From contig JAMBLJ010000036.1 of assembly GCA_023336815.1 (NCBI GenBank), forward strand, positions 13,991 through 77,990: 64,000 nt of DNA. Direction: 5' to 3'. The notes beneath the pieces are model-generated. The model did no database searches. It was not told the DNA's origin and saw only the letters and a program-made list of their open reading frames with translations. Positions 6,824 through 61,781 of this stretch are shown here, in pieces. The stretch is from Actinomycetes bacterium. GTDB lineage: Bacteria; Actinomycetota; Acidimicrobiia; Spongiisociales; UBA5794. Each line of letters opens with the position of its first letter. Position 1 is the stretch's first letter. The translations under genes and the position numbers were made by a program.

Positions 6824-8533
<1,710 letters not shown>

Positions 8534-8559
<26 letters not shown>

Positions 8560-9076: not shown

Positions 9077-9972
9077 CAGTTGCGGCCATCGACATCGGAT
9101 CGAACTCCCTGCGCCTGCTCGTCCTCGATCGGACGGGGGTAGAGCTTGAGCGCGATGTCACGGTCACGGGGCTTGGCTCCGGGATCGAAGCTACGGGTAC
9201 CTTCGATCCGCACGCAGTGGAACGTACACTCGATGTGATTAGCCGATACGCCGATGTGATCGCAAGTCACCCTGTGGAATTGCTGAAGGCGGTCGCGACG
9301 TCTGCGTCACGCGATGCCGCCAACGGTGAAGAGCTCATGATCGCGATAGATAACGCGCTGGGTGTCCGACCCGTCATCATTGATGGAGCCACCGAAGCGA
9401 GCCTTGCCTTCTTCGGTGCGACCATTGAGTCGTACCCTTCGGACCGGAAGCTCGTGATCGATATCGGAGGTGGCTCCACTGAGGTCGTCGTCGGCTATGA
9501 ATCTGTTACCTACGCAACGAGTATTGACATAGGTTCCGTCCGGTTGACCGACGCCTTCGTAGCCGACCGTCCGGTGGCACCGGACGTCCTCGACGCGATG
9601 CGAGCTCACACAGATAGAGCATTCGGTCAGGTTGCGTTGGTCGGCCCCGTAGATCAAGCGATCGGTGTGGCGGGTACGCTGACCAATCTCTCAGCGATGG
9701 CGATGCATCTGGAGATGTACGATCGCTCGGTCGTTGACGGGTCGTATATTTCCCTCGCCGTGATCTCTGATCTCATCGAGGAACTTTCCACGCTCACGAT
9801 CGCTGAGACCGAGATGATCCCTTCTCTCGATCCGAAGAGGGCCAGAGTCATCCTGGCTGGAGCGGTCATTGCTCACAGCATCATGACACGTTGCGATATC
9901 AGTGGCCTCCGTATCTCCGAGAGGGACCTGCTCGACGGACTCGCTAGGGAACTGCTCCAGGCGATCGACTGA
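9073..9972 (+). CDS. Ppx/GppA family exopolyphosphatase/guanosine pentaphosphate phosphohydrolase
   Basis: ATGA overlap with previous stop; N-terminal AAIDIGSNSLRLLV actin-like ATPase fold motif of Ppx/GppA; 299 aa (short actinobacterial form). Confidence 0.88.
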   Translation: MTVAAIDIGSNSLRLLVLDRTGVELERDVTVTGLGSGIEATGTFDPHAVERTLDVISRYADVIASHPVELLKAVATSASRDAANGEELMIAIDNALGVRPVIIDGATEASLAFFGATIESYPSDRKLVIDIGGGSTEVVVGYESVTYATSIDIGSVRLTDAFVADRPVAPDVLDAMRAHTDRAFGQVALVGPVDQAIGVAGTLTNLSAMAMHLEMYDRSVVDGSYISLAVISDLIEELSTLTIAETEMIPSLDPKRARVILAGAVIAHSIMTRCDISGLRISERDLLDGLARELLQAID

Positions 9973-9977
9973 CATAG

Positions 9978-45956: not shown

Positions 45957-47360
45957 GTGACCACAGTCGATATCGATCTTGGCAGCTATCAGCTCGGCTG
46001 GTCCGACGAAGAAGACTACGTTTTTAAGCCTGAGAAGGGTCTCGACGAGGAGCTCATCCGCACGATCTCGTCGATGAAGGGCGAGCCGGAGTGGATGCTT
46101 GACTTCCGTCTCAAGGCGTACAAGCGGTTCCTCAACAAGCCGACACCTCAGTGGGGTGGTGGTGGTCGTCTCGATGAGATCGACTACGACGACATCTACT
46201 ACTACATCAAGCCAACCGAGGGCCAGGCCAAGGATTGGGACATGGTTCCCGACTCCATCAAGGAGACGTACGAGAAGCTGGGTATCCCTGAGGCCGAGCG
46301 CAAGTTCCTCGCCGGTGTGACAGCGCAGTACGAGTCCGAGGTCGTGTACCACCGCAACCGTGAAGACCTTGAGAAACTCGGTGTCCTGTTCTGTGACATG
46401 GACACCGCGGTTCGGGAGTACCCCGAGCTCGTTCAGGAGTACTTCGGCACGATCATCCCGCCGAACGACAACAAATTCGCTGCGTTGAACTCGGCCGTAT
46501 GGTCCGGTGGCTCGTTCATCTACATTCCACCGGGTGTTCATCTCGAGGAGCCCCTTCAGGCGTACTTCCGTATCAACGCTGAGAGCATGGGTCAGTTCGA
46601 GAGAACACTGATCATCGTTGACGAGGGTGCGTTCTGTCACTACGTCGAGGGCTGTTCAGCCCCTACGTACACATCAGATTCTCTCCACGCAGCGGTTGTC
46701 GAGGTCGTCATCAAGGAAGGCGGCAGATGTCGCTACACGACGATCCAGAACTGGTCGAACAACGTCCTCAACCTCGTCACCAAGCGCGCAGCGGCATACA
46801 AGAACGCCACGATGGAATGGATCGATGGCAACCTCGGCTCCGGGCTCACGATGAAGTATCCGGCCGTGTGGCTGATGGAAGAGGGTGCGCACGGCGAGGT
46901 TCTCTCGATCGCCTTCGCCAACACAGGTCAGGTTCTCGATGCCGGAGCCAAGATGGTTCATGTTGCATCGAACACAACGTCACATATCACGTCAAAGTCG
47001 ATCAGCAAGGGTGGCGGACGTTCGATGTACCGGGGTCTCGTACGTGTTGAAGAGGGCGCAACGAACGCCAAGTCCTTTGTTATGTGTGACGCCCTGTTGC
47101 TCGACGAGGACTCTCGATCGGACACATACCCGTATATGGAGATCGAGGAGTCCAACGTCGACATCGGTCACGAAGCAACAGTGTCGAAGGTTGGTGAAGA
47201 TCAGTTGTTCTACCTCATGAGCAGGGGTCTCAGCGAGGCCCAGGCAACAGCCATGATCGTCGCAGGTTTCATCGAGCCGATCGTCAAGGAACTCCCGATG
47301 GAGTACGCAGTCGAGCTGAACCGCCTGATAGAGCTTCAGATGGAGGGCTCCATCGGATAG
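45957..47360 (+). CDS. sufB: Fe-S cluster assembly protein SufB
   Basis: 467 aa; GTG start with AGGAG RBS; SufB core ([22 protein letters not shown], beta-helix region) ; no sufC/sufD/sufS downstream. Confidence 0.85.
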
Positions 47361-47407
47361 CGTTCGCTCGAACGCACCACCTACCGATGTGAGTAGTCTC
47401 GCATACC

Positions 47408-48067
47408 ATGCGTATTCGAATAGCTGAGTGCACTGTCCGCTATGAGGGACGTCTCAACGCGTATCTGCCATCAGCCACGCGTCTGGTGATGGTCAAGGCC
47501 GATGGTTGTGTTGCCATCCATGCAGATGGTGGTGCGTACAAACCGCTCAACTGGATGAACGCTCCGAACACGTTGACCGAGGACGATCACCAGTGGATCG
47601 TCATCAACCCGAAGGGCGAGAAACTTATCATCGACTTCGGTGAGATCCACTTCGAGACTGCTCTCGAGATGGGCGAGGATCCCGGTCTTCAGAAGGATGG
47701 CGTGGAACTGGAGCTACAGCGGCTCCTGGCCGAAAGACCGGAAACCTTTGGCGAACGCATGGAACTTGTGCGACGTGAGTTCCCAACCCCCATCGGCCCT
47801 GTGGACCTCCTGTGTAGAGATGGCGACGGTGTCTCGGTTGCCATCGAGATCAAGCGTCGTGGCGAGATCGACGGTGTTGAGCAGCTGACGCGATACCTCG
47901 ACTTCTTGAATCGGGACACGAGGTTGGCTCCCGTTCGTGGCATATTCGCCGCCCAGTCAATCAAACCGCAGGCGAAGCTTCTCTGCGAGGACCGTGGCAT
48001 CGTATGGGTAGAGGTCGACTACGACGATCTCAAAGGGACGGATTCCGACGTGATGAAGCTCTTCTGA
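47408..48067 (+). CDS. nucS: endonuclease NucS (EndoMS, mismatch-specific RecB-like nuclease)
   Basis: 219 aa; N-terminal [21 protein letters not shown]...[14 protein letters not shown] closely matching mycobacterial NucS pattern; C-terminal RecB-like nuclease motifs (D..E.K: [20 protein letters not shown]). Confidence 0.88.
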
Positions 48068-48119
48068 GGAGCTTCGGCTAGCGATGTCGGATTCCTCGCG
48101 AGCGTGCTAGTTTGGGACG

Positions 48120-48674
48120 ATGGGCCTCGGATCCACACCAACAGCTGTCCTGCGCGACGAACATCGGTTGATCCTGGAGGTTGCCGATGCGCTTGATCAG
48201 CTGTTCGCAGTCGAGCCAGGCGGAGCAGCGCTTGACTTCGATGCCGTTGATCGCTGTATCACCTTCTTCAGACTCTTCGCTGATGCCTGTCACCACACCA
48301 AGGAAGAGGATCTTCTCTTTCCCGAACTCGAGAGGGCAGGGCTTCCACACGATTCTGGCCCGATCGCGGTCATGCTCAACGAACACGAGCAGGGGCGTGT
48401 GTTCGTTCGTGCGATGGCTGACGCCATAGAGACGGCGCGAACTGGGGAATCCTCGAGCCTCGCGGACCTGCGAGCCGCTGCAGATGGCTTTGTCTCGCTG
48501 ATCGTTGCCCATATCGCCAAAGAGGACGGTGTATTGTTCAACATGGCTGATGGCATGATCGTCGGACCCGAATGTCGAGAGCTGTGTGCTGCCTACGACA
48601 CCGCGTGCAGCCGCAGATTCGAAGGGCAGTCGAAAGAGGATCTTGAGCGGTTGGGTGCAGCGATCCTCGGTTGA
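48120..48674 (+). CDS. hemerythrin-like (HHE cation-binding) domain protein
   Basis: Four-helix pattern with His/Glu ligand motifs: LRDEHRLI, FADACHHTKEEDLLFPELE, LNEHEQG, AHIAKEDGVLF. Confidence 0.75.
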   Translation: MGLGSTPTAVLRDEHRLILEVADALDQLFAVEPGGAALDFDAVDRCITFFRLFADACHHTKEEDLLFPELERAGLPHDSGPIAVMLNEHEQGRVFVRAMADAIETARTGESSSLADLRAAADGFVSLIVAHIAKEDGVLFNMADGMIVGPECRELCAAYDTACSRRFEGQSKEDLERLGAAILG

Positions 48675-48686
48675 TCTCCCTATCAG

Positions 48687-49355
48687 CTACTTCCCCCTGA
48701 GTGCTAGCGCAACGGCCTCAACGCGACTGTGAACTCCGAGTTTTGCCAGGATGTGCTGGATGTGGTTTCGGACAGTTGCCGGTGAAAGGAACAACTCTTC
48801 GGCGATCGCCTTGCCATCGAAACCTTCGGTGAGCAACTGGAGCACGTCGCGTTCCCTCGGGGTGAGCGCTGAGAGATGCTCGTTCGATGCTGCAGTGGCA
48901 GGAGTGCGGCCATCGAGTCGCTGCACGATCAGTCGCTCGAGTTCCGGGGGAAGCGAGACCTCGCGGATGAGGTGGATCAGCCGACAAGCCTCGCGCATCT
49001 CGATGGGGGGTACGATCGTTGAGGCGCTCAGCCACAGTGTCGCCCCTGAGGCGGAGCGTCCGAGTACTTCTTTCGTCTCAACCGTCTCGTCTTCCGTGCC
49101 AATCTCGGCTGCGGGACACATTCCGTTGCACACGACGTCGCCGCAGCGGTCCCGCCAACATAGGATCTCGTGACATGGACGGCCGAGAGCCTCGTCTGAT
49201 CGGTAGCCGAGAAGATCCGTCGCGGCGTCGTTCCAGGCGACGATGCGCAGATCCGGCCCGATCGCAACCATCGCGTCGCTCGTTCGTCCCATCACGTCGA
49301 GAAGTTCGACGAGAGACCCCTCGATTCCCGGTTCTATCGCTGTGACACTGGCCAT
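48687..49355 (-). CDS. PAS-domain LuxR-family transcriptional regulator (Cys-rich PAS)
   Basis: N-terminal PAS-like fold with CHEILCWRDRCGDVVCNGMCP (5 Cys), C-terminal GerE/LuxR HTH LTPRERDVLQLLTEGFDGKAIAEELFLSPATVRNHIQHILAKLGVHSRVEAV. Confidence 0.8.
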   Translation of the reverse strand: MASVTAIEPGIEGSLVELLDVMGRTSDAMVAIGPDLRIVAWNDAATDLLGYRSDEALGRPCHEILCWRDRCGDVVCNGMCPAAEIGTEDETVETKEVLGRSASGATLWLSASTIVPPIEMREACRLIHLIREVSLPPELERLIVQRLDGRTPATAASNEHLSALTPRERDVLQLLTEGFDGKAIAEELFLSPATVRNHIQHILAKLGVHSRVEAVALALRGK

Positions 49356-49412
49356 GAGTGCTACCGACTGTACGGACCGACACCAAGCGGCGTCAAGGAC
49401 GGCCAGTTGCTG

Positions 49413-49913
49413 CTACCCATTGGCGCGGGTCCGCAACACCTCGAGGATCCCTCCTGCGGACAGGATCGTCCGCATTTCTTCTGGCAGAGAGTCGCCCTGG
49501 TATGTGTCACCCGTTGTGCGGTTGGTGACGGCTCCTGTGGCAAGGTCGACCGCGATCACTTGACCCTCCTCGAACACGTCGTGTACACCTTCACATACGA
49601 GAACAGGCAACCCGACTGCAACTGCGTTTCGCATGAAGATTCGAGCAAGCGACTCTGCGACCACACAGGCCACACCTACCGCCTTCAAGTTCTCGGGGGC
49701 TGTCTCCCTACTCGATCCACAGCCAAAGTTGGATCCCCCAACGATGACATCGCCTGGTTGACATTCCGATGCGAAGACGGGGTTCACAGATTCGAGTACA
49801 TGCAGCTTGCGTATCTCAAGTGGTGCAACAGCGTATGTGCCGGGCGACAGAACATCGGTACTGATGTCGTTTCCGAACCTCCACACCCTGCCTTGTACCA
49901 GTGTCTCAGGCAT
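49413..49913 (-). CDS. 3-isopropylmalate dehydratase-type small subunit (LeuD-like, archaeal/short type)
   Basis: 166 aa; GRVWRFGNDISTDVLSPG and VIVGGSNFGCGSSRE swivel-domain motifs of aconitase-family small subunits. Confidence 0.85.
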   Translation of the reverse strand: MPETLVQGRVWRFGNDISTDVLSPGTYAVAPLEIRKLHVLESVNPVFASECQPGDVIVGGSNFGCGSSRETAPENLKAVGVACVVAESLARIFMRNAVAVGLPVLVCEGVHDVFEEGQVIAVDLATGAVTNRTTGDTYQGDSLPEEMRTILSAGGILEVLRTRANG

Positions 49914-51177
49914 GTTTCACTCCCTGATCTCGCGGATCGGCGATCGCACCGGCAAGCGCTGAGGCGGCTACGGTCGCTGGTGATGCAAGGAAGATCTCTG
50001 CGTCTGGGCTTCCCATACGTCCGATGAAGTTACGATTGTGGGTCCCGATGCAGCGCTCGCCCGGAGCCATCAGACCACCGTGGCCACCGAAACACGGGCC
50101 ACATCCGGGTGGAAGGACAGATGCACCTGCGTCGACGAGAGTCGCCAGTACTCCGGTTTCCATTGCCTCCTTCAGGACGTCGCGTGAGGCGGGTACGACG
50201 AGTAGTCGCACACCCGGTGCGATATGTTTTCCGGCAAGCACCTCGGCTGCTGCCCTCAGGTCCTCGATCCGGCCGTTGGTGCACGAACCAAGGAAGGCTT
50301 GCTGGATGGTGAGTCCCTCGGCATCAGCGATCGGGCCGACTCTGTCGACCTCATTAGGCATGGCGATCTGTGGTTCGAGGTCCGAAAGCGAGATCTCATG
50401 CACCGTCTCGTAGACGGCGTCGTCATGCGGGCCGAACGGCTCACACCCGATGCCTCCGTGATCAAGGAGGTACGAGTTCGTGATGTCGTCGGCTGCGAAC
50501 AGACCGAACTTCGCCCCCATTTCCACCGCCATGTTCGCGACAGTGAGCCTGCTCGACATGTCAGCCCTGGAGGCTGCTTCGCCTCCGAACTCCATGGCTT
50601 TGTACTGGGCGGCATCCGCGCCGAAGCGACCTGCCAGGTACAGGATCACATCTTTCCATGTCACTGTCGGCTGGAGGGAGCCTGTGAGTTCAAACCGGAT
50701 CGTCTCGGGAACACGGAACCACAACCTTCCCGTTGCAAGCGCGTAGACCATGTCGGATGTTCCGATCCCGGTCCCACCCGCTCCGAGCGCACCGTAGGTT
50801 GTTGTGTGCGAGTCGGTGCCAACGACGAGTGACCCCGGCCGAATGTGACCGTGTTCGGGGAGGAGCTGATGACAGATTCCCGTGCCTGAGTCGTAGAAGG
50901 CCTCGATTCCGAGGCGAGTGACGTGGTCGCGGATCCGTTGATGGATAGCCGCCGCTTCAGCGGATGGCGCAGGGACGAGGTGGTCTATGACTACAACCGT
51001 CCGTTCGGGATCGAACACATCATCGAATCCGACATCCGCAAGCGTGTCGAAGACCTGGGCAGCGAATATGTCGTGCAGCAGAGCGAGGTCGATGTCGGCG
51101 ACAATGAACTCGCCAGCGACCACAGATTCGTTTCCTGTCGCTCTGGCCAGGATCCGTTCTGCCTGTGTCATTCCCAT
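49906..51177 (-). CDS. 3-isopropylmalate dehydratase/homoaconitase-type large subunit (LeuC-like, short type)
   Basis: Aconitase-family large subunit with Fe-S ligand Cys regions (GSCTNGR, PPGCGPCFGG); likely start MGMTQAERIL at 51177; overlaps leuD-like start by 8 nt. Confidence 0.85.
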   Translation of the reverse strand: MGMTQAERILARATGNESVVAGEFIVADIDLALLHDIFAAQVFDTLADVGFDDVFDPERTVVVIDHLVPAPSAEAAAIHQRIRDHVTRLGIEAFYDSGTGICHQLLPEHGHIRPGSLVVGTDSHTTTYGALGAGGTGIGTSDMVYALATGRLWFRVPETIRFELTGSLQPTVTWKDVILYLAGRFGADAAQYKAMEFGGEAASRADMSSRLTVANMAVEMGAKFGLFAADDITNSYLLDHGGIGCEPFGPHDDAVYETVHEISLSDLEPQIAMPNEVDRVGPIADAEGLTIQQAFLGSCTNGRIEDLRAAAEVLAGKHIAPGVRLLVVPASRDVLKEAMETGVLATLVDAGASVLPPGCGPCFGGHGGLMAPGERCIGTHNRNFIGRMGSPDAEIFLASPATVAASALAGAIADPRDQGVKHA

Positions 51178-51193
51178 TGTCGTGACTCCGTGT

Positions 51194-51940
51194 TCATCCT
51201 GCACCAAGGCTTCGACCACCGCACACGTACAGGGTCTGTCCTGTCACGTAGGAAGACTCATCCGCAGCGAAGAAGAGTGCAGCGTTTCCGATATCGCTCG
51301 AGGTCCCAACACGCTTGGCAGGGATCGTTTTGATAAGTCGTTCCTGGACCTCCTCCTTCAATCCACGGAACAACGGTGTGTCCACCAGGGCTGGTGCGAT
51401 AGCGTTGGCCGTGACACCGTAGCGAGCCATCTCGAGTGCCAGAGATCGGGTGAGGCTGATCACAGCACCCTTGGATGCGGCGTAGTTGGCCTGGCCCGGC
51501 CCACCGAGCCACGCCCTCGATGAGATGTTGACGATCCTGCCGTATTCCTGCTCCATCATGTGTGGCGCAGCCGCCCGACACGTGAGGAACTGTGACTTGA
51601 GATTGACCTGAAGGACGGTGTCCCAGTCCTCCTCGCTCATCTTCGCTAACCATCCGTCCCGAGCCATACCTACGTTGTTGACGAGAATATCGATGCGTCC
51701 GTACGAGTCGATAGCAGCCTGGATGAGCGAGTTCGCACCTGCTGACATCGACACATCTGCGGCATGGCCTGTGACTTCGTGCCCAGCGTTGATGAACTCA
51801 TCGACGACCTCGTCCACCTTGTCAGGGAACAGATCGTTGATGACCACCTTTGCACCCGCGGCACCGAGCGTCTCAGCGATTCCTTTGCCAATGCCCTGAC
51901 CCGATCCTGTGACGACCGCAACCCGATCTTTGACGTTCAT
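51194..51940 (-). CDS. SDR family oxidoreductase (FabG/3-hydroxyacyl-CoA dehydrogenase-like)
   Basis: ATG at 51940 with GAGGAAAACA RBS; TGSGQGIGKGIA, NNVG, catalytic YAASK; ORF track N-terminal 184-aa extension is spurious. Confidence 0.85.
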   Translation of the reverse strand: MNVKDRVAVVTGSGQGIGKGIAETLGAAGAKVVINDLFPDKVDEVVDEFINAGHEVTGHAADVSMSAGANSLIQAAIDSYGRIDILVNNVGMARDGWLAKMSEEDWDTVLQVNLKSQFLTCRAAAPHMMEQEYGRIVNISSRAWLGGPGQANYAASKGAVISLTRSLALEMARYGVTANAIAPALVDTPLFRGLKEEVQERLIKTIPAKRVGTSSDIGNAALFFAADESSYVTGQTLYVCGGRSLGAG

Positions 51941-51953
51941 TGTTTTCCTCTCT

Positions 51954-52793
51954 TCATCGTCCGGTGAACTCGGGCGGTCGTTTGTCGATGAACGCCTGGA
52001 TCCCCTCGTCTCTGTCCTGGCTCGCACGGAGAACGGCATGGCTGGTCGATTCGAGTTCGAGTCCTGTCTCGAGATCGGTTTCGGTCGCTCGATTGACGAG
52101 TACCTTGACGCGGTCATGGGAGAGCGGTGCACGGCTTGCGATGCGCTCGGCAAGCGCCATCGTTGCTTCCATGAGATCGTCGTCCGGCACGACACGGTTG
52201 ACGAGACCCATACGAAGCGCATCCTGTGCGCTGATGTGATCCGCTGTGAACATGAGCTCCTTGGTGAAGCCGGGCCCGATGAGACGGGTCGCACGCTGGG
52301 TACCACCCGCACCAGGAAGGCTTCCGACCTTCGCTTCAGGGAAGCCGAGTCGCGAGCTCTCGGTACACACGCGCAGGTCACCCGACAAGGCCAGCTCGAG
52401 TCCTCCACCGAGGGCGTACCCCGAGATCGCCATGATGACGGGCACGTGCATGTTCTCGAAACGACCGAAGACGTCGCGCACGAGGATGCCAAGCGGATCG
52501 TGTATCAATCCGGCCTCGAAATCCTTTCCCCTACTTTTGAGATCAGCCCCAACACAGAACGCCTTTGTACCGGATCCCGTCACGACAAGTACACGGGTCG
52601 CAGCGTCGGATTCGACGGCCTGAACGATGCTCTTCATCGTTTCGAGCATCGGCACGGTCATGGCGTTCATCGCGGTTGGCCGGTTCAACGTCAGGACACC
52701 AACTGCGCCCTTGCACTCGTAGAGGACAGGTGCCTCGGCGGAGGTGCTGTCTCGATCATCTGTCACGGTTGATCCCTTTCCTGGTGTGCTCAT
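51954..52793 (-). CDS. enoyl-CoA hydratase/isomerase (crotonase) family protein
   Basis: [42 protein letters not shown] oxyanion-hole/catalytic motifs. Confidence 0.88.
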
Positions 52794-53995
52794 GTCTTTG
52801 ACGCAGCCATCACCACGCCGTCCTCGTTGAGCTGCTCGATATCGGATGGTGTGAACCCGAATTCGTGGAGGATCTCATTGGTGTGTTGGCCAGCGATTGG
52901 GGGTGCTGGCCCTGTCGGGTCACAGGGTGTGTGTGAGAAGCGCCCGGGGAAGCCAGGAGAGCGAACCTCTCCCGTGGAGGGATGGTCGACCGTGACGATC
53001 GATCCACCCTGTGTGATGTGATCTTCGGCCATCAGTTCTGGATAGGACAGCAGTGGTCCGCAGAGGATGTCCGCTTGATCGAGGGCCTCGACCCAGTCAG
53101 CGGTACATCGTTCAGAAAAGAGTGGTTCCACGATCTCTCTGAGGGCAGCACGATGGTTGACCCGCTTCTCGTTCGAATCGAATCGATCGTCGACAGCGAG
53201 ATCGGGAATTCCCAGGACCCCGCAGAGCGCCACCCATCGTTTCGGGGTGTAGGCGGCGATCATGACATATCCGTCCTTCGTCCGGTATGCCTCGTTCGGC
53301 GCGGCGTAGGGCGCAGCACTGCCGAGCCGCTGTGGCGACTTCCCGCTGGCCAAGTACATCGAAAGCGGGACAACCTGATACGAGAGCAGAGCATCGAGGA
53401 GCGACACATCGATTCGCTGGCCGCCGCCTGTGCGCTCTCTCGCGTAGAGGGCTGCCAGGATCGATTGGGAAGCGAACACCCCGCCAGCCATGTCGGCCGC
53501 GGGTACACCAACCTTCACTGGAGGACCGTCCGGTGTTCCCGTCACACTCATGATGCCGCCCATTGCCTGTGCAACACCATCGACGCCAGGGCGATCACGC
53601 CACGGCCCCGATTGGCCGAACGCGGATATCGCTGCATAGATCGCCATGGGATTGGCTTTGGCGATGGCGTCGTAGCCGACCCCGAGCCTGTCGGCGACAC
53701 CGGGCCGGAAACTCTCGAGCACGATGTCGGATCGTTCGGCGAGACGCAATACGACTCCTGTTCCGCCATGTCGTTTGAGATCGACAACGATGCTTCGCTT
53801 GTTCCGATTCATACCGAGGAACGCAGCTGCGACATCACCAACGAATGGTGGTCCCAACCCTCGTCCCCATTCACCGCCTGGCGGTTCCACCTTGATGATG
53901 GTGGCGCCGAGGTCACCGAGATGCATCGCACACGTTGGACCGGCCGCTCCCTGTGAGAGGTCGAGAACGGTGACGCCATCAAGTGCTCCGCGCAT
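52790..53995 (-). CDS. CoA-transferase family III (CaiB/BaiF) protein
   Basis: [39 protein letters not shown]-terminal signature of family III CoA-transferases; ATGA-type overlaps on both sides. Confidence 0.88.
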
Positions 53996-54605
53996 GCACC
54001 TGTTCCTCCCGGGTCAAACCGAGTGTTGGGGCAGGCGATGCACCACGAACTACGAACTCGGCGATCTCGGCGGCTATCTCTTCAGGGGAGTATCGACCGG
54101 ACGGCTGGTACCAGCGAACGACGGAATTGCACATGCCAAGAATGGCCTTCGCCGCGATCCCAACGTCCTGCTCAACGAAATCGCCCGTTGCGATGCCCTC
54201 CTTGAGCATGTCTCGAAAGATACGTTCGTATCGATCCCGATTCGCGATATGTGTTGTCATGAAGTCGGGACTCAGATAGCGACCCTCTTCGATGAAACAT
54301 GCAATCGCATCCCTGTCACGGATCGCTGCCACCGTGTGAAGAGCGATGGCAGTTCTCACACGTTCAGCAATCGGGAGGTCGGACTCAGCAACCTCGCTCA
54401 CAACCGGAGTGACCCGGTTGACGGTCAACTCGATGATTTCCGAGAGGAGCGCCTGCTTGCTCGAGAAGTGGTGATACAAACTTGATTTCGAGATCCCGAC
54501 TTCTGTTGCGAGGTCGGCCATACTCGTCCCGTTGAAGCCCTTGTTGCGAAATAACGCCGCGGCTTCGAGCCGGATTCGTGCCCTGGTGGTGATCTCGTCC
54601 GTCAT
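53979..54605 (-). CDS. TetR/AcrR family transcriptional regulator
   Basis: N-terminal HTH RIRLEAAALFRNKGFNGTSMADLATEVGISKSSLYHHFSSKQAL; embedded within operon (overlaps both neighbours). Confidence 0.88.
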   Translation of the reverse strand: MTDEITTRARIRLEAAALFRNKGFNGTSMADLATEVGISKSSLYHHFSSKQALLSEIIELTVNRVTPVVSEVAESDLPIAERVRTAIALHTVAAIRDRDAIACFIEEGRYLSPDFMTTHIANRDRYERIFRDMLKEGIATGDFVEQDVGIAAKAILGMCNSVVRWYQPSGRYSPEEIAAEIAEFVVRGASPAPTLGLTREEQVHARST

Positions 54606-55138
54606 GGAGATGTTTCACGGACGAGGTGAGCTCCAGCCTCGAGAGCCTTGAGGTTCATGTCGCGGTGTTTCGCTGGAACACGTGCGGCCACGGCGGTGCG
54701 TAGCGCCTCGTCCTCGACCACGTCCGCGACTGCCTGGAGTACTCCAAGAGCGACGACACCCGTCACGAGCTGGCTGCCAGATATCGCTCTCGAGGTGTCG
54801 ACAACGGCGAACTGACGTGCGGTCCCTGCCAGGCTGGCTGGTGCACATCTACCATCGACGATCAATCGTCCGTCCGGTGAGAGCTCGGGCTGGTATCTCG
54901 TATATGCCTCTGCGCTCAGCACGATGAGGAGATCTATGTCGTCTGCAAGGGGAAATCCGATCGGTCCGGTCGCTATCACGACATCCGATCTGCTCGCGCC
55001 GCCCCTGGACTGTGGCCCATACACCTGGCTGTGAGTTGCGTGACTTCCCGAAAGGATGGCGGCCTCGGCGAGGATCCTGCCAGCGGTGACAACACCCTGT
55101 CCACCGGCTCCGGCGATTCGGATCTCGTTGCGGTTCAT
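54602..55138 (-). CDS. 2-oxoacid:ferredoxin oxidoreductase gamma subunit
   Basis: IRIAGAGGQGVVTAGRILAEAA...QVYGPQSRGGASRSDV (PorG/KorC family). Confidence 0.85.
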   Translation of the reverse strand: MNRNEIRIAGAGGQGVVTAGRILAEAAILSGSHATHSQVYGPQSRGGASRSDVVIATGPIGFPLADDIDLLIVLSAEAYTRYQPELSPDGRLIVDGRCAPASLAGTARQFAVVDTSRAISGSQLVTGVVALGVLQAVADVVEDEALRTAVAARVPAKHRDMNLKALEAGAHLVRETSP

Positions 55139-55953
55139 GACCTCCCGACCTTTCGTACCCCGGAGAACACGGGGCGCAGCTCGTTGTGAAGCACTCCTGT
55201 TGCCAGACCGGGAGGTGGGGCTGATGACGGGATGTGGTTGACGAAACGTTTGTCGGACAGTGGCCCGGAGACTCCTTCATCGCGCACTGACATCCACGTC
55301 AACATTTCAGCTCCACCACCGACCTTGTTGTACCGACCGAAGTACTCAGGGCAGTCGCTGATGACCTCGATAAACGAAAAACCGGGATGGTTCAATCCAT
55401 CGGCCATGACCTTTGTCATGTCCATCGGATTCGCTGCGAGGACTCTGGCCACGAACGAGGCACCAGCGCCGATGAGGAGTTTGCAGGCATCGAAGTTCGG
55501 TTCGGTGTTGCCGGCAGGTGTTGTCGATGCGATCGCCCCTTCCGGGGTCGTTGGAGCAGCCTGTCCACCGGTCATCCCGTAGATCGAGTTGTTGAGCAAG
55601 AGCACAGTGATATCGATATTTCGTCGAGCGGCATGGATCAGATGGTTGCCGCCGATCGCCAGGGCATCACCATCACCAGTCACCACGACGACATTGAGAT
55701 CCGGGCGTGCGAGTTTGAGCCCCGTTGCGAACGCTGGTGCCCTGCCATGTGTTCCGTGCAGGGTGCAGAAGTCAACATATCCCGCGAGGCGGCTGCTGCA
55801 CCCGATCCCCGCGACCATCGCGATCTTGTCCTGATCCAGTTGGAGTTGGTCAACCGCGGTGAGGAACGACCGCAGAACGATGCCGTGGGCACACCCCGGG
55901 CACAGGACATGGGGCATCGCCCATTCTCTGAGATATGATTTCACATCCGTCAT
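55135..55953 (-). CDS. 2-oxoacid:ferredoxin oxidoreductase beta subunit (TPP-binding)
   Basis: CPGCAHGIV N-terminal Cys motif, TPP-binding GDGDALAIGGNHLIHAARRNIDITVLLLNNSIYGMTGGQ. Confidence 0.88.
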   Translation of the reverse strand: MTDVKSYLREWAMPHVLCPGCAHGIVLRSFLTAVDQLQLDQDKIAMVAGIGCSSRLAGYVDFCTLHGTHGRAPAFATGLKLARPDLNVVVVTGDGDALAIGGNHLIHAARRNIDITVLLLNNSIYGMTGGQAAPTTPEGAIASTTPAGNTEPNFDACKLLIGAGASFVARVLAANPMDMTKVMADGLNHPGFSFIEVISDCPEYFGRYNKVGGGAEMLTWMSVRDEGVSGPLSDKRFVNHIPSSAPPPGLATGVLHNELRPVFSGVRKVGRS

Positions 55954-57116
55954 TGGCGCACCTTCTCTGCATGCAGGATCTCTTCGAGCAGGGTCGTCGG
56001 TGTTATCGGTTCGCCGTCAGCCTTGAGATATCCGAGGACCTCGGCATTGCCTGCCACGGCACGTTCGACTTCTCCGATGAGTTGACCGAGGTTCATCTCT
56101 GCAACGAGAATGGTGTCGACCCTTGATGCGACGGCAGCGACTTCTCTTGCTGGGAACGGCCACAGGGTCACAGGGCGAATGAGTCCGACCTTGATCCCGG
56201 CATCGCGCGCCCGTTCAACCGCCTCGCGGGCAGATCGTCCGACGATGCCATACGCGAAGATCGCGATGTCCGCGTCGTCGAGCATGTAGGTGTCCACCTC
56301 GACGATCTCATCGAGGTGAGCCTCTATCTTGCGATGAAGACGAGCGACAAGAGCTTCAGCTACCTGAGCGTCGTTGGTAGGAAAGCCTCGTTCGTCGTGA
56401 GCGAGACCTGTGACATGGAACCGGTATCCATCGCCAAAGGCTGGGAGCGGTGGTGTACCGTCCGGCGGTGCGACCATCGGCCAGAAGTCGTCCGGATCAT
56501 CATGTGGCTGTTCACGATCGATCACATCGACCGTCGCGGGGAGTACGACGCTCTCACGTGTATGTCCGATGATCTCGTCGTAGAGGACGATGACCGGTGT
56601 GCGAAACCGCTCCGCGAGGTTGAAGGCCTTGACCGTGACGTGGAATACCTCTCCGACAGACGACGGTGCGAGCACGATGATGGGGTGATCTCCATGGGTG
56701 CCCCAGCGTGCTTGCATAACATCTCCCTGGGAGGGGGACGTTGGGAGTCCGGTGCTCGGACCACCCCGCATGACGTTGACGATCACACACGGGACTTCGG
56801 TCATTGCGGCGAATCCAATGTGTTCTTGCATGAGCGAGAACCCTGGCCCGCTTGTTGCGGTCATCGACTTCATTCCACCGAGTGATGCGCCTACAACGGA
56901 TGCGAGAGATGCGATCTCGTCCTCCATCTGCACGAAGACCCCTCCGATGTTTGGGAGCAGTCTCACCATGTGCTCAGCGATCTCCGACGATGGTGTGATG
57001 GGATACCCACCGTAGAACCGACACCCTGCTGCGAGGGCACCTTTGACACAAGCTTCGTTTCCCTGGATCAGTTGGGCCTGAGCGAGCGGAATCTCCGGTA
57101 GTCGGGTTTCGGTCAT
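55950..57116 (-). CDS. 2-oxoacid:ferredoxin oxidoreductase alpha subunit
   Basis: GNEACVKGALAAGCRFYGGYPITPSSEI, domain I/III of PFOR-like alpha subunits. Confidence 0.88.
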   Translation of the reverse strand: MTETRLPEIPLAQAQLIQGNEACVKGALAAGCRFYGGYPITPSSEIAEHMVRLLPNIGGVFVQMEDEIASLASVVGASLGGMKSMTATSGPGFSLMQEHIGFAAMTEVPCVIVNVMRGGPSTGLPTSPSQGDVMQARWGTHGDHPIIVLAPSSVGEVFHVTVKAFNLAERFRTPVIVLYDEIIGHTRESVVLPATVDVIDREQPHDDPDDFWPMVAPPDGTPPLPAFGDGYRFHVTGLAHDERGFPTNDAQVAEALVARLHRKIEAHLDEIVEVDTYMLDDADIAIFAYGIVGRSAREAVERARDAGIKVGLIRPVTLWPFPAREVAAVASRVDTILVAEMNLGQLIGEVERAVAGNAEVLGYLKADGEPITPTTLLEEILHAEKVRQ

Positions 57117-57991
57117 CAGGCGCTCGATTCATTCGTGGTGTTCGTTCCGACGACCGCCAGCTCCCGTGGTGCATGGATATCAATGGCGAAATCGGGACAG
57201 AGAATCTCGCACAACCTGCACCCTGTGCAGGCTTCTGGATCGACGATGGTCAGCTTTCCGTCTACGTCGACCGCAAGGCAGTACTCGGGACAGACCCTCG
57301 AACAGATGTCGCAGCCCTTGCACCAGTCGTGTCGGATCTCGATCTCGTGAGGTCCGGAGAACCCGTCTGGATCCTGCGCGGCATCGGGTACTCGCGCCTC
57401 AGCGACCTGTCGACCCGCTCGGAACGCCGCGAGGTTGATCTTCTCGGTCCCGGCAGGGACCAGATCTGCGATCGCTGCTTCCCAGTGGACGTCGTCGATG
57501 TCGATGAAGGCTGCCACCGTGCCGAGGATCACGCTGTTGGCGGCACGAACGTTGCCGAGATCCGTTGCAGTTGCCGTTGCGTCGATGAGTCGCGTCTTGA
57601 GATGGCGGCTATCGAAAAGCTCGCCATCGATACCGGGGTAGCGCCGCAACCATGAACGTCGATCAGTGCATGCACCAGGGGGCACGATCGTTCGGATGTC
57701 TGCGACAACCGCTCCTCCGTCTCGAACGTACTCGACCCACCGCACCGCTTCGGCCCACTCGAATGCTGCAAGGACCTCCGCGCTCCCGAGGGGGACGAGC
57801 GGACTATCGACTCGCTCACCCCACCGAATATGGCTGAACACGGATCCTCCGCGCTGAGCCATTCCGTGGACCTCGCTTTGTTTGACATCATGACCTGCAC
57901 GCATGAGCGCGTCCGCAACGATCATGCTCGCCAGGATCACTCCCTGGCCCCCGACACCAGCCAGCAGCAGGCCTCGTGACCCCTCAGGCAT
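57116..57991 (-). CDS. iorB: indolepyruvate:ferredoxin oxidoreductase beta subunit fused to 2x[4Fe-4S] ferredoxin domain
   Basis: N-terminal GVGGQGVILAS...EVHGMAQRGGSV (IorB/gamma-type), C-terminal CKGCDICSRVCP...CTGCRLCEILCP ferredoxin motifs. Confidence 0.8.
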   Translation of the reverse strand: MPEGSRGLLLAGVGGQGVILASMIVADALMRAGHDVKQSEVHGMAQRGGSVFSHIRWGERVDSPLVPLGSAEVLAAFEWAEAVRWVEYVRDGGAVVADIRTIVPPGACTDRRSWLRRYPGIDGELFDSRHLKTRLIDATATATDLGNVRAANSVILGTVAAFIDIDDVHWEAAIADLVPAGTEKINLAAFRAGRQVAEARVPDAAQDPDGFSGPHEIEIRHDWCKGCDICSRVCPEYCLAVDVDGKLTIVDPEACTGCRLCEILCPDFAIDIHAPRELAVVGTNTTNESSA

Positions 57992-59798
57992 GGGAAACCT
58001 CCGCTGTGTTCACGAGGACGATCGCACGTGGGGGACACAGTTGAACACACAGGGTGCAACCGGTGCAGGTAATGGGGTCGATGACAACTTTGCGTCGCCC
58101 TTCGAACAGTTCGTCTGACCATACGATCGACGGACATCCTGGTGTCATACATGCCTGGCAGGCGGTGCATGCCTCAGCGAGAACGGTGAACGGTGTGTCT
58201 CTTACCTTCATCGGTGCTTCGACGCACGGCCTGTTCGTGATCACGACCGACGGGCCTGCGTGACTGATAGCGTCCCCGAGCGCTCCGTAGGTTGCTGCGA
58301 GGTCGTACGGATCGATGACCTTCACATCCTTGACCCCGACGGCTGTGCACATCGCAACCAGGTCCACCGGAGTCGCTGCGGTGCCTTGCAGCGTGACTCC
58401 GGTGCCTGGATGTTCCTGGCCGCCGGTCATGGCAGTGGTGCCGTTGTCGAGAATGAGAACCGTGATGTTGGCATGTGCGTACACCGCATCCGCCAGTGCG
58501 GCGACGCCACTGTGGAGGAAGGTCGAGTCTCCGATCGTCGCTACGACCGGTCCATCCGCTCCTCCGGAGGCGGCCATGCCGACTGCCATTCCGATACTGC
58601 TTCCCATCGCGACGCACGTGTCCATCGATGAGAGGGGTTCGAGCGCAGCAAGCGTGTAGCAGCCGATATCACCGGTTACGACTGCGCCCAATCTCTTGAG
58701 TGCCAGGAACGGAGGAGTGTGCGGGCAGCCCGGGCACATCAGCGGTGGTCTTGTGACCGTTGATGGGGCAGCCACGATCGGTATGCCCTTCGATACCAGG
58801 CCTGCTTCCGCAAAGCCGGCCCGGACCACATCCGGACTCAGTTCGCCGATCTGGGGGAAAAGCGACTTGCCCTCCACGTCGATTCCCGCTGCTCGAAGAT
58901 CGTTCTCCACATACGGGTCGAGTTCCTCGACGACGAACAGGCGGTCAACCGAATCGGCGAACCGTCTGATGCGCTCCATGGGGAGCGGATAGCTCATACC
59001 GAGCTTGAGGATGCGTGCATCGGGGAGCACCTCGCGGACGTAGTGGTGTGCGATCCCGGACGTGATGACGCCAAAATCGGTCCCCGATCCGAACGCTTCC
59101 GTGAGCGGACTTTCTTCGACGTAGTCACGCATGTCATCCAGACGCTTCAGTACCACGGGTCGTCGTCTTCGGGCATTTCCTGGGATCATCACGTACTTCG
59201 CTGGATTCTTCGTGAAGCCGAGGACAGGTCGGTCCAGTCGTTCCGCTAGTTCGACAAGACCCCTGTTGTGCGAAACACGTGTGGTCGTACGTACGAGCAC
59301 CGGTGTGTCGAAGGTTTCAGAGATCTCGAAGGCAAGCGCTGTGTATGCCTTTGCCTCAGCACTGTCGCTTGGCTCGAGGAGCGGCACTGCCGCCATGCGA
59401 GCGTACGCCCGGTTGTCCTGCTCGTTCTGGGAACTGTGCATGCCGGGGTCGTCTGCGCTGATCACAACGAGTCCAGCGCCTACGCCCGTATATGCGGCCG
59501 TCATGAACGTGTCGGCCGCCACGTTAAGACCAACATGTTTCATGGTGACGAGAGCCCGTACCCCACCGAGCGACGCTCCGAGTCCCACATCGAGTGCTAC
59601 CTTCTCGTTCGGTGACCAGCGAACGTCGATGTCATCACGATTCGCTATCGATTCGAGGATCTCGGTGCTCGGCGTACCCGGATATCCGACTGCCACGAGC
59701 ACACCCGCTTCGACCGCCCCCCTCGCAACCGCCTCGTTCCCTGACATCAGGACACGAGTGACCTCGTCGGCTTTCGAGGCAGTTGGCGCGGTGATCAC
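57984..59798 (-). CDS. iorA: indolepyruvate:ferredoxin oxidoreductase alpha subunit
   Basis: 604 aa; LMSGNEAVARGAVEAGV...GYPGTPSTEI, TPP-binding domain, C-terminal Cys clusters CTACQACMTPGCP / CTGCTLCVQLCP. Confidence 0.85.
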   Translation of the reverse strand: MITAPTASKADEVTRVLMSGNEAVARGAVEAGVLVAVGYPGTPSTEILESIANRDDIDVRWSPNEKVALDVGLGASLGGVRALVTMKHVGLNVAADTFMTAAYTGVGAGLVVISADDPGMHSSQNEQDNRAYARMAAVPLLEPSDSAEAKAYTALAFEISETFDTPVLVRTTTRVSHNRGLVELAERLDRPVLGFTKNPAKYVMIPGNARRRRPVVLKRLDDMRDYVEESPLTEAFGSGTDFGVITSGIAHHYVREVLPDARILKLGMSYPLPMERIRRFADSVDRLFVVEELDPYVENDLRAAGIDVEGKSLFPQIGELSPDVVRAGFAEAGLVSKGIPIVAAPSTVTRPPLMCPGCPHTPPFLALKRLGAVVTGDIGCYTLAALEPLSSMDTCVAMGSSIGMAVGMAASGGADGPVVATIGDSTFLHSGVAALADAVYAHANITVLILDNGTTAMTGGQEHPGTGVTLQGTAATPVDLVAMCTAVGVKDVKVIDPYDLAATYGALGDAISHAGPSVVITNRPCVEAPMKVRDTPFTVLAEACTACQACMTPGCPSIVWSDELFEGRRKVVIDPITCTGCTLCVQLCPPRAIVLVNTAEVSHA

Positions 59799-61051
59799 TG
59801 TGGTGCGGATGTGCTCAGCAGCGGCATGATCTCGTCCTCTGCGAGGACATGGTCAGATTGCTTTGCTGCGGCGAGGATCTTGTCGACCGTTGCATCGTCG
59901 AAGCTATGTCCGCGTTTCATGAGCCAGGCGACAGCGTTGGCCTTTCCACTCATCGGTCCGACGGTGATCTCCTGCTCACGTCCGAGCTCGTCTGCGGGTA
60001 CGCCGCTGTAGATGCGGTTCGCGAGCCATGTGTCTCCTGTGCGGAGCGCCTTGAGGACGGCAGCGGCGTGGACACCGGTGCTCGTCTCGAACGCGTCCTT
60101 ACCAACACTGGGACAGTTGTTCGGGACAACGGTCTCCGTTGCGGTAGAGATAGCTCGACAGTACTCGGGCAGAGCGTGAAGATCGGTGTCGAGCCATCCG
60201 AGCAGCTTGAGATTCACGAGCAGCGTCTCCATTGGTGTGTTGCCGACGCGTTCGCCGATACCGAGACCGCACCCGTGAACTCTGTGGGCACCAGCCGAAA
60301 GTGCAGCAAGCGAATTGATCACGGACAGGTTGCGATCGCGGTGCCCGTGCCAGTCGATCTTCACCTCTTCGCCGGAATCCGCGACGATCTCGACGGCGAG
60401 AGCAACGAGAGCTCTGGTTCCCCACGGGGTGGCATGCCCGACCGTATCTGAGAGACAGATCCGCCGCGCCCCTGCTTCGATCGCTGTTTGGTACACCTTG
60501 CGTAGAACCTCTGGTCGTGCACGAGTTGTGTCTTCGGTCACGTACATGACCTCGAGCCCCGATTCACGGGCAAGCGTTACGGCATCGTGTGTTGTACGAA
60601 CAAGGAAGTCGACGTCCCACCCCTCAACGAACTGTCTGATGGGGCTTGAGCCGAGGAAGAGGGCGGCCTCTATCGCAACACCCGAGCGTTGCTGCGCCTC
60701 AGCGATAGGAAGGATGTCGGCTGCGTGGGTTCGTCCTGCGCAGTTCGGCTTGACGTTGAGTCCCGCCTTGTCGATCTCGGTTGCAAGCGCTACCACGTGG
60801 TCGAGAACCACCGGATCCGCACCGGGGTACCCGATGTCTGCGGCATGGATGCTGAGGGCTTCGATCCGGTGCAGGATGTCGAGCTTCTCATCAAGGGTTG
60901 GCTGGCGCACGGATGGACTCTGAAGTCCATCCCTGAGGGTTTCGTCGTCGAGTTCAACTTCGGTTGGCGGCGAGATATCGCCTTCTCCTATGAGGTTCCA
61001 GTCGTAGAGCAGCTGTTGTTCCCGTGTCTCGGAGGTTTCTTTCGTGGTCAC
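59795..61051 (-). CDS. DRE-TIM metallolyase, 2-isopropylmalate/homocitrate/citramalate synthase-like (short form, no regulatory domain)
   Basis: DETLRDGLQS, HGHRDRNLSVINSLAALSAGA, GIGERVGNTPME motifs of LeuA/NifV/CimA family; 418 aa; first gene of minus-strand operon. Confidence 0.75.
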   Translation of the reverse strand: MTTKETSETREQQLLYDWNLIGEGDISPPTEVELDDETLRDGLQSPSVRQPTLDEKLDILHRIEALSIHAADIGYPGADPVVLDHVVALATEIDKAGLNVKPNCAGRTHAADILPIAEAQQRSGVAIEAALFLGSSPIRQFVEGWDVDFLVRTTHDAVTLARESGLEVMYVTEDTTRARPEVLRKVYQTAIEAGARRICLSDTVGHATPWGTRALVALAVEIVADSGEEVKIDWHGHRDRNLSVINSLAALSAGAHRVHGCGLGIGERVGNTPMETLLVNLKLLGWLDTDLHALPEYCRAISTATETVVPNNCPSVGKDAFETSTGVHAAAVLKALRTGDTWLANRIYSGVPADELGREQEITVGPMSGKANAVAWLMKRGHSFDDATVDKILAAAKQSDHVLAEDEIMPLLSTSAPQ

Positions 61052-61283
61052 GTCGCCTCCCTGCGCATGTACCGTCCGGCCGTTCGGTTGGCTCCGTTAC
61101 AGGGTCACAGCCAGCCGGACTCCTGACAATCCGCCCGATGTGTCATATTCCTGATACGTCTGCATCAGATGTCGGTTCGGTCATCGGGCCGGGAAAGCGG
61201 GTGATGGGTGGCCCAGAGGGATCGGTGTGGGGTCGATGCATCAGGGAAATGGCGCCCGTGGCTCATTGACGCATCGGTGTGGG

Positions 61284-61781
61284 ATGGAGACACTCGTGGA
61301 GTCGACCGAACGGCCGGACGGTTGCACGATCATCGTGGCTGATCCGACTGGTGAAGGAGGAACATTGAGCGGATCAGCTGTTGCGGTGTCGTTCCGACCA
61401 GCCGAACTGGAGGTGCGACCCGATGGGTCTGGCAACCTCCTCGGGAGCAGATGTCAATCGTGTGGTGCCCACTTCTTCCCGATCAGGGAGGCATGCTCGG
61501 GTTGTCTCAGCAGAGACCTCGACGACGTCAGGTTCTCGACGAACGGAACGCTGTACACGTACTCCGTCGTTCGCCAGTCGACTCCAGCGTTCGAGGTGCC
61601 CTACGTACTCGGCTACGTCGACCTGCCGGAAGGTGTCCGCATCATGGGACAGATCACAGGATGTCCGATCGAGGACATCTCGATCGGCATGGCGGTGGAA
61701 ATGGTGCTTGAACCCTTTGGTACCGATGACGATGGGAACCCTCTCACCGGATTCCGATTCCGACCAGCGGAGGCATCATGA
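61284..61781 (+). CDS. DUF35 OB-fold/Zn-ribbon protein (thiolase partner; BbsA/ChsH2-C-like)
   Basis: Zn-ribbon CQSCGAHFFPIREACSGC followed by OB fold (YTYSVVRQS...GYVDLPEGVRIMGQI); start ATG 61284 or TTG 61365 after GAAGGAGG; stop overlaps thiolase start. Confidence 0.75.
   Translation: METLVESTERPDGCTIIVADPTGEGGTLSGSAVAVSFRPAELEVRPDGSGNLLGSRCQSCGAHFFPIREACSGCLSRDLDDVRFSTNGTLYTYSVVRQSTPAFEVPYVLGYVDLPEGVRIMGQITGCPIEDISIGMAVEMVLEPFGTDDDGNPLTGFRFRPAEAS

Follow-up and report, generated by a model that had tools for sequence, protein, structure and literature searches.

Here we focus on a pair of convergent genes in a 64,000-nucleotide stretch of DNA (the window) from an Actinomycetes bacterium of the Acidimicrobiia lineage UBA5794 (assembly GCA_023336815.1, contig JAMBLJ010000036.1, positions 13,991 to 77,990). 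The gene on the reverse strand (48687..49355) encodes a one-component regulator of 222 residues, in which a PAS domain is joined to a LuxR-type helix-turn-helix (HTH). The gene on the forward strand (48120..48674) encodes a hemerythrin/HHE-like di-iron protein of 184 residues, which resembles YtfE/RIC and ends in a cysteine-bearing extension. The reading that we favour, and hold with slightly better than even confidence, is that the regulator is an uncharacterised one-component sensor of redox state or oxygen, built around a metal-thiolate centre that is probably an iron-sulfur (Fe-S) cluster, and that a di-iron protein accompanies it in a minority of genomes. This reading is carried by three cysteines and one histidine that are kept across a large family and that map, by homology, to the cofactor pocket of the PAS domain.

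A large protein search gave 785 matches for the regulator and 1191 for the hemerythrin, and both reading frames are real genes. Close relatives of both proteins come nearly all from metagenome-assembled genomes (MAGs) of Acidimicrobiia or Actinomycetota, several of which are hydrothermal-vent assemblies by record name, and one hemerythrin match, on an 85.5-kb NCBI MAG contig labelled Actinomycetia, is 100% identical. The regulator contains a PAS fold, residues 26-113 matching PAS_9 (33.5 bits, with a cut-off of 27) and PAS_4, both above the Pfam gathering score. It also contains the GerE DNA-binding domain (PF00196, E = 5.8e-21) at residues 163-218 (48702..48869, reverse strand), and a profile search of the PDB matches the C-terminal domains of DegU, NarL, GerE and DosR.

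The initial annotation drew attention to a cluster of five cysteines in the PAS domain, and the cluster is indeed present. The segment from residue 61 to residue 80 (49116..49175, reverse strand), which replaces the F-alpha region of the PAS fold, has cysteines at positions 61, 66, 71, 76 and 80, in a sequence that reads CHEILCWRDRCGDVVCNGMCP for residues 61-81; the whole protein has six. When the regulator sequence was shuffled 200,000 times, 185 shuffles gave five cysteines in a 20-residue window. The annotation further held that its idea of metal or thiol sensing would fail if the cysteines were variable among orthologues, and three of them do not vary at all. An alignment of the window regulator with its 120 best homologues (121 sequences at 62-94% identity) has C61, C76 and C80 in 121 of 121 sequences. 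C66 is present in 89 and C71 in 101: both occur in 69 sequences, C71 alone in 32, C66 alone in 20, and not one sequence lacks the two together, where about 5 double absences would be expected under independence, a comparison that is only indicative since the sequences are related. Judged by this pattern, C66 and C71 substitute for each other. A sixth cysteine, C124, is found in 119 of the 121. The candidate for a fourth ligand is His128 (codon at 48972..48974, reverse strand), in the last PAS beta-strand (I-beta); it is present in 120 of the close homologues, the remaining one having a gap there, and a broad alignment in whose selection this column played no part has it in 69 of 69 sequences.

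Which of these residues form the conserved unit becomes evident from distant relatives, which were reached by scanning GTDB species genomes and by searching 1.84 billion representatives exhaustively with HMMER. At 30-45% identity, such relatives come from Methylomirabilota/Rokubacteria, Nitrospirota, Acidobacteriota, Chloroflexota, Binatia and Proteobacteria, and they keep C61-x14-C76-x3-C80 with C66, C71 and C124 lost. A PAS-only alignment of 24 sequences at 28-46% identity (alignment A3) has A45, G58, C61, C76, C80 and H128 as its only invariant columns, and the apparent exceptions to the motif were search-pattern artefacts, truncated fragments or, in one case, a C-x2-C variant. Because the distant relatives keep C61, C76, C80 and H128 and lose the other three cysteines, the conserved unit is a Cys3His set, and C66, C71 and C124 are, on these alignments, additions specific to the Acidimicrobiia branch. 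The five-cysteine motif of the initial annotation is therefore right as to the clustering and wrong as to the core, which is three cysteines plus His128 and not five cysteines. Nor is the motif an oddity of one protein, as the word unusual had implied for PAS-LuxR regulators; it defines a large, unnamed family that spans several phyla and has other outputs too.

These other outputs are informative. Among metagenomic proteins, the Cys3His PAS domain lies at the C-terminus of SARP-type regulators with Trans_reg_C and BTAD domains (P0136 and P0209), is fused to a receiver domain (P0152), and is found inside a histidine kinase with five PAS domains (P0165). Because it is joined to SARP/BTAD, receiver and histidine-kinase outputs, the Cys-PAS domain behaves, on the evidence of domain organisation, as an autonomous and portable sensor module. 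PDB profile searches, curated-family searches and cluster look-ups returned no solved or named homologue of it, the ten distant-member clusters that were looked up being all metagenomic with generic protein names. The family was likewise not described in the full-text literature searched for PAS or LuxR proteins with iron-sulfur or hemerythrin. By sequence, fold and synteny, the regulator belongs to a sizeable uncharacterised family, the known kinds nearest to it being Fe-S or metal-binding PAS sensors and PAS-LuxR one-component regulators. In two loci of distant family members, from MAGs of Gammaproteobacteria and Kiloniellales (L073, at about 6900-11030, and L074), the Cys-PAS-LuxR gene precedes genes for YeeE/YedE-like membrane proteins and for a small TusA-like CPxP protein, as judged by eye, and a Candidatus Thiodiazotropha MAG has a further member of the family. 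By analogy with the NreB protein of Bacillus licheniformis, some branches of the family may sense sulfur species and not O2.

The position of the Cys3His set within the fold can be read from a structural model and from alignment with characterised PAS domains. An AlphaFold2 model of the regulator (mean predicted local distance difference test score, pLDDT, 81.9) has the canonical order of PAS strands and helices, a linker helix at residues 137-146 and a four-helix HTH. In place of the F-alpha helix it has an irregular segment of lower confidence (residues 66-90), and H128 falls within its last beta-strand (residues 126-132). In PAS domains this last strand lines the pocket, and in LOV domains it bears the glutamine that relays the signal. 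The top Foldseek match of the regulator (E = 5.5e-9) is EL222, the light-activated LOV-HTH transcription factor of Erythrobacter litoralis (PDB 3p7n, 8a5r), which has the same length of 222 residues and the same PAS-linker-LuxR HTH architecture. With an EL222 query identical in sequence to PDB 8a5r, hhalign gave a probability of 97.3% over the full length (180 columns) and of 91% for the PAS domain alone, and both alignments place GRPC61 on the LOV motif GRNC, so that C61 takes the place of the E-alpha cysteine that forms the flavin adduct. The Gly-Arg and the Cys of this motif are kept but the rest is not (GRPCHEIL in the regulator, GRNCRFLA in EL222, with gaps thereafter), and the regulator, unlike EL222, has a Cys-rich loop for F-alpha and an invariant set of three cysteines and a histidine. 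Because the remainder of the flavin-binding LOV motif (GxNCRFL plus Asn/Gln) is not retained, the regulator is not a LOV domain or photoreceptor.

A second anchor comes from E. coli DosP (EcDOS), the best sequence match of the PAS profile in the PDB by hmmsearch. The EcDOS alignment brings C76 and C80 to within a few residues of RPAH77P, the site of the proximal heme histidine on F-alpha; His77 and Met95 are what we take to be the heme ligands of this protein, an assignment that agrees with its printed sequence. Because C61 falls on the LOV flavin cysteine and C76/C80 fall beside the EcDOS heme histidine, the site is placed in the PAS cofactor pocket, and the invariant residues map, by homology, to positions that contact cofactors and not to a peripheral knuckle. 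The same likeness raises the question of heme itself, since the nearest PDB relatives of the domain in sequence and fold include the heme PAS sensors DosP/EcDOS and FixL. A heme-binding PAS domain with Cys/His axial ligation could sense a gas or redox state in the manner of RcoM, NPAS2 or the ligand switching of the CooA type, and both the proximity of C76/C80 to the EcDOS heme histidine and the Cys-Pro dipeptide (C80-P81) of 107 of the 121 close homologues would suit such a site. However, heme takes no more than two ligands from the protein, and here three cysteines and a histidine are invariant; P81 is not conserved in the wider family; and the F-alpha helix that bears the heme histidine is replaced in the model by the irregular Cys loop. 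We regard heme as very improbable.

Zinc is a stronger competitor. The Cys3His set could be a structural zinc site, with the PAS domain or the linker sensing an organic metabolite of the adjacent pathway, or a zinc-thiolate redox switch of the RsrA/Hsp33 type, in which zinc is ejected and disulfides form on oxidation. Zinc is commonly bound by Cys3His and Cys4 sets with short spacings, the interchangeable C66/C71 ligand would suit any tetrahedral metal site, and regulators that end catabolic operons often sense intermediates of the pathway concerned. WalK provides an example of a cytoplasmic PAS domain that zinc can regulate (bioRxiv 10.1101/405365). On the other hand, the ligands map to pocket positions that contact cofactors and not to a peripheral knuckle, a metal in the pocket leaves an organic ligand little room, and the many unrelated gene contexts and the other output domains argue for a general signal rather than for one metabolite. 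The neighbouring genes are also rich in Fe-S proteins, and one of them encodes the RIC-like protein. We consider zinc the most plausible of the alternatives, followed by a coincidental pairing with the hemerythrin, a disulfide switch and heme, in that order, and doubtful nonetheless.

The disulfide switch would dispense with the metal altogether, dimerisation or DNA binding being controlled by reversible disulfides among the clustered cysteines, as reported for VqmA and PedR. VqmA, the PAS-LuxR quorum-sensing receptor of Vibrio (PDB 6ide, 6ugl), shares the architecture of the regulator and is a top structural match (fold match E ~1e-7), and its activity is modulated by the redox state of cysteine. 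It differs in binding an organic autoinducer, DPO, and in being without the C-x14-C-x3-C...H motif, with an identity of about 18-20% in the fold alignment. PedR, a small LuxR-type regulator, is controlled by an intermolecular disulfide at Cys80 that thioredoxin reduces (PMC13421787). Five cysteines within 20 residues would also favour chemistry of this kind, but an invariant histidine, exactly three invariant cysteines and a movable fourth cysteine (66 or 71) fit metal ligation better, and a metal-free switch seems to us quite improbable.

To our knowledge only a few PAS domains hold Fe-S clusters, namely the two types of NreB and OrpR, and each of them does so with a different motif. In OrpR of Desulfovibrio vulgaris, a redox-sensitive [4Fe-4S] cluster is held by C52, C61 and C65 of the PAS domain (C-x8-C-x3-C), its fourth ligand being unidentified (PMC8359166). 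OrpR resembles the regulator in having three conserved PAS cysteines that end in C-x3-C, and it offers the example of a PAS domain through which redox potential controls a DNA-binding transcription factor. Between the first two cysteines the spacing is 14 in the regulator and 8 in OrpR, as compared by published motif, and the output is a LuxR HTH here, no AAA+ domain having been found in the regulator, where OrpR is a sigma-54 AAA+ activator. NreB of Staphylococcus carnosus is an O2 sensor with a [4Fe-4S] cluster, and that of B. licheniformis is a sulfide sensor with a three-cysteine [2Fe-2S] cluster (PMC13478379). The proposed likeness to these proteins lies in the three or four cysteines that hold the sensing cluster in the E-alpha/F-alpha part of a cytoplasmic PAS domain; the motif itself, CX2CX11CX2C in S. 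carnosus and CX2CX11C in B. licheniformis, is not matched by C61-x14-C76-x3-C80. The output differs as well, NreB acting as a histidine kinase via NreC whereas the regulator carries its LuxR HTH on the same polypeptide. In the B. licheniformis NreB structure there is no histidine ligand, all His, Asp and Glu residues being more than 8.7 Å from the iron atoms (PMC13478379).

If the regulator is the metal-thiolate sensor that we propose, its PAS pocket would hold the centre on C61, C76, C80 and H128, instead of a flavin or an organic ligand, and in the Acidimicrobiia branch C66 or C71 would give a further ligand. Ligation by three cysteines plus one other residue is typical of regulatory clusters, as in IscR, NsrR and mitoNEET, and the centre would most likely be a labile Fe-S cluster. 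If this centre were lost, oxidised or nitrosylated, the change would pass from H128, in the I-beta strand, into the beta-sheet and the linker, and would alter HTH dimerisation and DNA binding as in EL222, in which control of HTH release and dimerisation by the PAS beta-sheet gives the likely allosteric scheme. The predicted signal reported by the regulator would thus be the status of O2, of redox or of nitric oxide (NO).

The second protein of the pair has features of its own. Residues 6-143 of the hemerythrin match PF01814 (E = 3.3e-21), and the di-iron ligand set H...HxxxE...H...HxxxE is present as H15, H59, E63, H89, H131 and E135; these residues and H58 are invariant in 121 hemerythrin sequences. 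In the same sequences four cysteines are invariant or nearly so, of which C57 adjoins the di-iron His pair and the others (C152-x3-C156-x6-C163) lie in the C-terminal extension. The AlphaFold2 model (pLDDT 93.8) is a four-helix bundle with two extra C-terminal helices, the latter also modelled with confidence. In a PDB profile search YtfE comes first (E = 8e-9), with the segments HxxKEExxLFP, GPIxVMxxEH and HIxxENxVLF aligned. The di-iron HHE fold assigned from the start is thus retained, but in sequence the protein is nearest to YtfE/RIC and not to the O2-carrying hemerythrins, and it has an invariant cysteine quartet of its own.

The likeness to YtfE/RIC (PDB 5fnn, 7bha) extends to the four-helix di-iron ligand set and the motifs around helices 2-4, and also to genomic context, as the hemerythrin gene neighbours genes for aconitase-family and other Fe-S enzymes, the classic clients of RIC. 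Proteins of the YtfE/RIC kind repair aconitase-type clusters and restore aconitase and fumarase (PMC9268430). What marks the family functionally is that it returns activity to damaged [4Fe-4S] dehydratases and that NO or H2O2 induces it. The hemerythrin nevertheless differs from them in several respects. It scores far below the NCBIfam cut-offs for YtfE (27 bits, cut-off 254), DnrN (22.3, cut-off 300) and RIC (19.7, cut-off 204.7), and it is without the N-terminal ScdA_N domain (DfCCgG motif), the HHE region starting at residue 6. It has the two-helix C-terminal extension, and C57, C152, C156 and C163 are not part of the YtfE region to which it aligns. Because the RIC of Neisseria gonorrhoeae is likewise without ScdA_N (PMC9268430), the absence of this domain does not exclude a RIC-like function. 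In a fold search the only good match was the uncharacterised PF0695 (3cax), and no solved structure in that search matched the C-terminal Cys extension. By analogy with the rubredoxin-like domain of rubrerythrin, the four cysteines suggest a second metal or redox site.

The two genes converge, as the initial annotation had stated, although its distance of 13 bp is a coordinate difference and the stop codons are 12 nt apart (48675..48686). A pattern scan found no terminator-like site in this junction, and the RNA folds of the junction were not more stable than those of shuffles (z 0.0 to 1.6). In related adjacent pairs the gap is about 9-85 nt, measured between tblastn match ends. How often the genes are paired was counted in 48 regulator-centred loci with at least 700 nt downstream and an available flank of up to 10 kb. 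In 14 of them the hemerythrin gene is convergent and adjacent, 4 have it convergent but 1-10 kb away, and in the other 30 the available flank does not contain it. No other downstream neighbour of the regulator recurs, and this one is found in 18 loci. The pair occurs beside the LeuCD operon described below, in an unrelated upstream context without that operon (L028, L031, L032, L041 and L055), and, as a third setting, next to genes for RidA, PALP and thiolase (L081-L083), and it persists although the gene beyond the hemerythrin is not constant (NucS in the window, a tRNA or other genes elsewhere).

Since no other downstream neighbour recurs, and since the pair is found, convergent, in at least three unrelated upstream contexts, the link is not one of chance. 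The contrary view is that the adjacency has no functional meaning and that unrelated genes happen to abut. It can appeal to the 30 loci in which the hemerythrin was absent from the flank, to the hemerythrin homologues at 51-61% identity, most of which are not beside a regulator, to one genome in which the hemerythrin sits elsewhere, beside a MerR-type gene, and to the separate promoters of the two genes. It does not sit well with the recurrence of the pair in 18 loci and several contexts, nor with the persistence of the pair while the far-side gene varies, and we hold it to be unlikely. On the gene order in these loci, the association is real but facultative, the hemerythrin being an accessory and not an obligate partner.

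On its other side the hemerythrin gene is preceded in the window by genes for a full-length SufB (TIGR01980, 715 bits) and then NucS (45957-48067), a neighbourhood that is not conserved in related loci; before SufB is an open reading frame of 1478 residues, by eye the large subunit of glutamate synthase. A tie between the hemerythrin and SufB/NucS was considered and rejected, as the upstream gene differs between loci while the regulator side is constant. In L005, L008 and L012 the reverse complement of a tRNA gene (by eye) stands beyond the hemerythrin instead of NucS. It may be that the cluster has a recombination or rearrangement boundary at its hemerythrin-regulator end.

Upstream of the regulator, and in the same direction, lies an operon of 11.6 kb (49413..61051, reverse strand) with tightly abutting or overlapping genes, annotated with Pfam and NCBIfam. 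It begins with genes for an isopropylmalate synthase/homocitrate-synthase-like protein, IorA, an IorB-ferredoxin fusion, and the alpha, beta and gamma subunits of a 2-oxoacid:ferredoxin oxidoreductase (OFOR). After these are encoded a TetR regulator, a family III CoA-transferase, an enoyl-CoA hydratase, an SDR protein and the LeuC-like and LeuD-like parts of a homoaconitase-family dehydratase. By these assignments the operon is an uncharacterised 2-oxoacid/dicarboxylate pathway with ferredoxin-dependent oxidoreductases of the IOR and OFOR types. It is conserved across Acidimicrobiia and in part in Thermoleophilia. The position of the regulator directly downstream of a large ferredoxin-dependent operon, noted at the outset, is genuine, on the same strand and syntenic. 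When operon proteins were compared by tblastn with 79 species-level loci, most Acidimicrobiia loci had the block from OFOR-alpha to LeuD directly upstream of the regulator, with gene order and strand unchanged, and the LeuD-like gene is immediately upstream in 42 of the 50 loci with enough sequence. In Thermoleophilia/Gaiellales the regulator is instead about 2.7 kb upstream of the CoA-transferase-hydratase-SDR-LeuCD genes. Because these lineages keep regulator and operon near each other in an altered layout, the linkage survives rearrangement.

At the far end of the operon, an 18-mer, ACCGTCCGGCCGTTCGGT, at 61071-61088 recurs as its exact reverse complement at 61305-61322, 234 nt apart. Each copy is an imperfect palindrome, and the two stand on either side of the divergent intergenic region that precedes the first gene of the operon (61051..59795, reverse strand). 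This could be an operator pair for the TetR of the operon or for the PAS-LuxR regulator.

The regulator gene has a promoter-like site, TTGACG-N18-TACAGT (49367..49396, reverse strand), with a -10 hexamer (49367-49372) that ends 11 nt before the ATG; no other sigma-70-like site was found in 47300-50100. A TAnnnT element at the fixed distance, with TTGAC before it, is present under a strict pattern in 19 of 33 related regulator loci and is visibly conserved in most of the others. Because this element of its own is conserved across loci, the regulator is not simply the last cistron of the operon. The hemerythrin gene is preceded by a -10-like TAGTTT (48108..48113, forward strand) 6 nt before the ATG, a promoter of the leaderless type, and TAnnnT occurs at the same distance upstream of hemerythrin genes in related loci, though the further-upstream gene differs. 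The convergent genes have separate predicted promoters, and both seem to give mRNAs that are leaderless or nearly so. Copies in the window of the block around the regulator -10, CCGTACAGTCGG, are not above chance (66 matches with up to 3 mismatches, where 75.5 were expected), and among 17 hemerythrin and 35 regulator upstream regions no inverted repeat was shared by more than two related loci.

The likely targets of the proposed sensor would be these neighbours, that is, the operon of O2-labile Fe-S enzymes, the convergent hemerythrin gene, or both. The enzymes in question would be the two ferredoxin-dependent 2-oxoacid oxidoreductases and the LeuCD-type dehydratase. The hemerythrin would protect or re-metallate damaged clusters, those of the enzymes and perhaps that of the sensor, or would process NO or O2. 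In this way the expression of O2-labile enzymes, of a cluster-protecting protein, or of both, would be matched to redox or O2/NO status. Any direction given to this regulation, and any physical link between the hemerythrin and the regulator, is likewise a prediction from the gene order and the predicted proteins.

Several observations weigh against this interpretation. The cofactor cannot be read from sequence, and a Cys3His set is just as typical of a zinc site, be it structural or redox-active. The motif spacing is unlike that of any characterised Fe-S PAS domain, and no part of the PAS model has lower confidence than the Cys loop (pLDDT 58-70). As to the partner, the hemerythrin is adjacent in only about 30% of the counted regulator loci. 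In a hemerythrin-centred metagenome sample of loci that have the C-terminal Cys motif, at 51-67% identity, 3 of the 12 loci with enough downstream sequence have the regulator. The loci of distant family members (L056-L079) have unrelated contexts with no common neighbour, and no hemerythrin was found in them with a hidden Markov model built from the local family. As to the targets, the operon has a TetR regulator of its own, the regulator gene has its own promoter-like site, and no operator or palindrome shared by the regulator, hemerythrin and operon promoter regions was found, the targets being taken from adjacency only.

A bolder form of the proposal can also be stated. The regulator would then stand for a large sensor class in many phyla, of EL222-like PAS-HTH proteins with a Cys3His Fe-S cluster in the position of the flavin or heme pocket. 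In Acidimicrobiia it would be part of a two-gene sensor/repair module, in which a dedicated RIC-like hemerythrin with a Cys4 site resets the clusters of the sensor and of the neighbouring dehydratase and oxidoreductases after damage by O2 or NO. We think it unlikely that all of this holds together.

If the regulator is the metal-thiolate sensor that we favour, the family with the invariant Cys3His pocket would add to the known PAS sensors a simple and widely distributed sensor of redox state or O2 (or of NO or sulfide) on a single polypeptide. The EL222 scaffold is already used in optogenetics, and the shared scaffold might yield a compact redox-responsive transcription switch. The paired hemerythrin, RIC-like with an extra cysteine quartet, is a second uncharacterised protein whose function may be approachable through the pairing. 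For the uncultured marine and hydrothermal Acidimicrobiia themselves, such a sensor could explain how O2-labile, ferredoxin-dependent metabolism is controlled.

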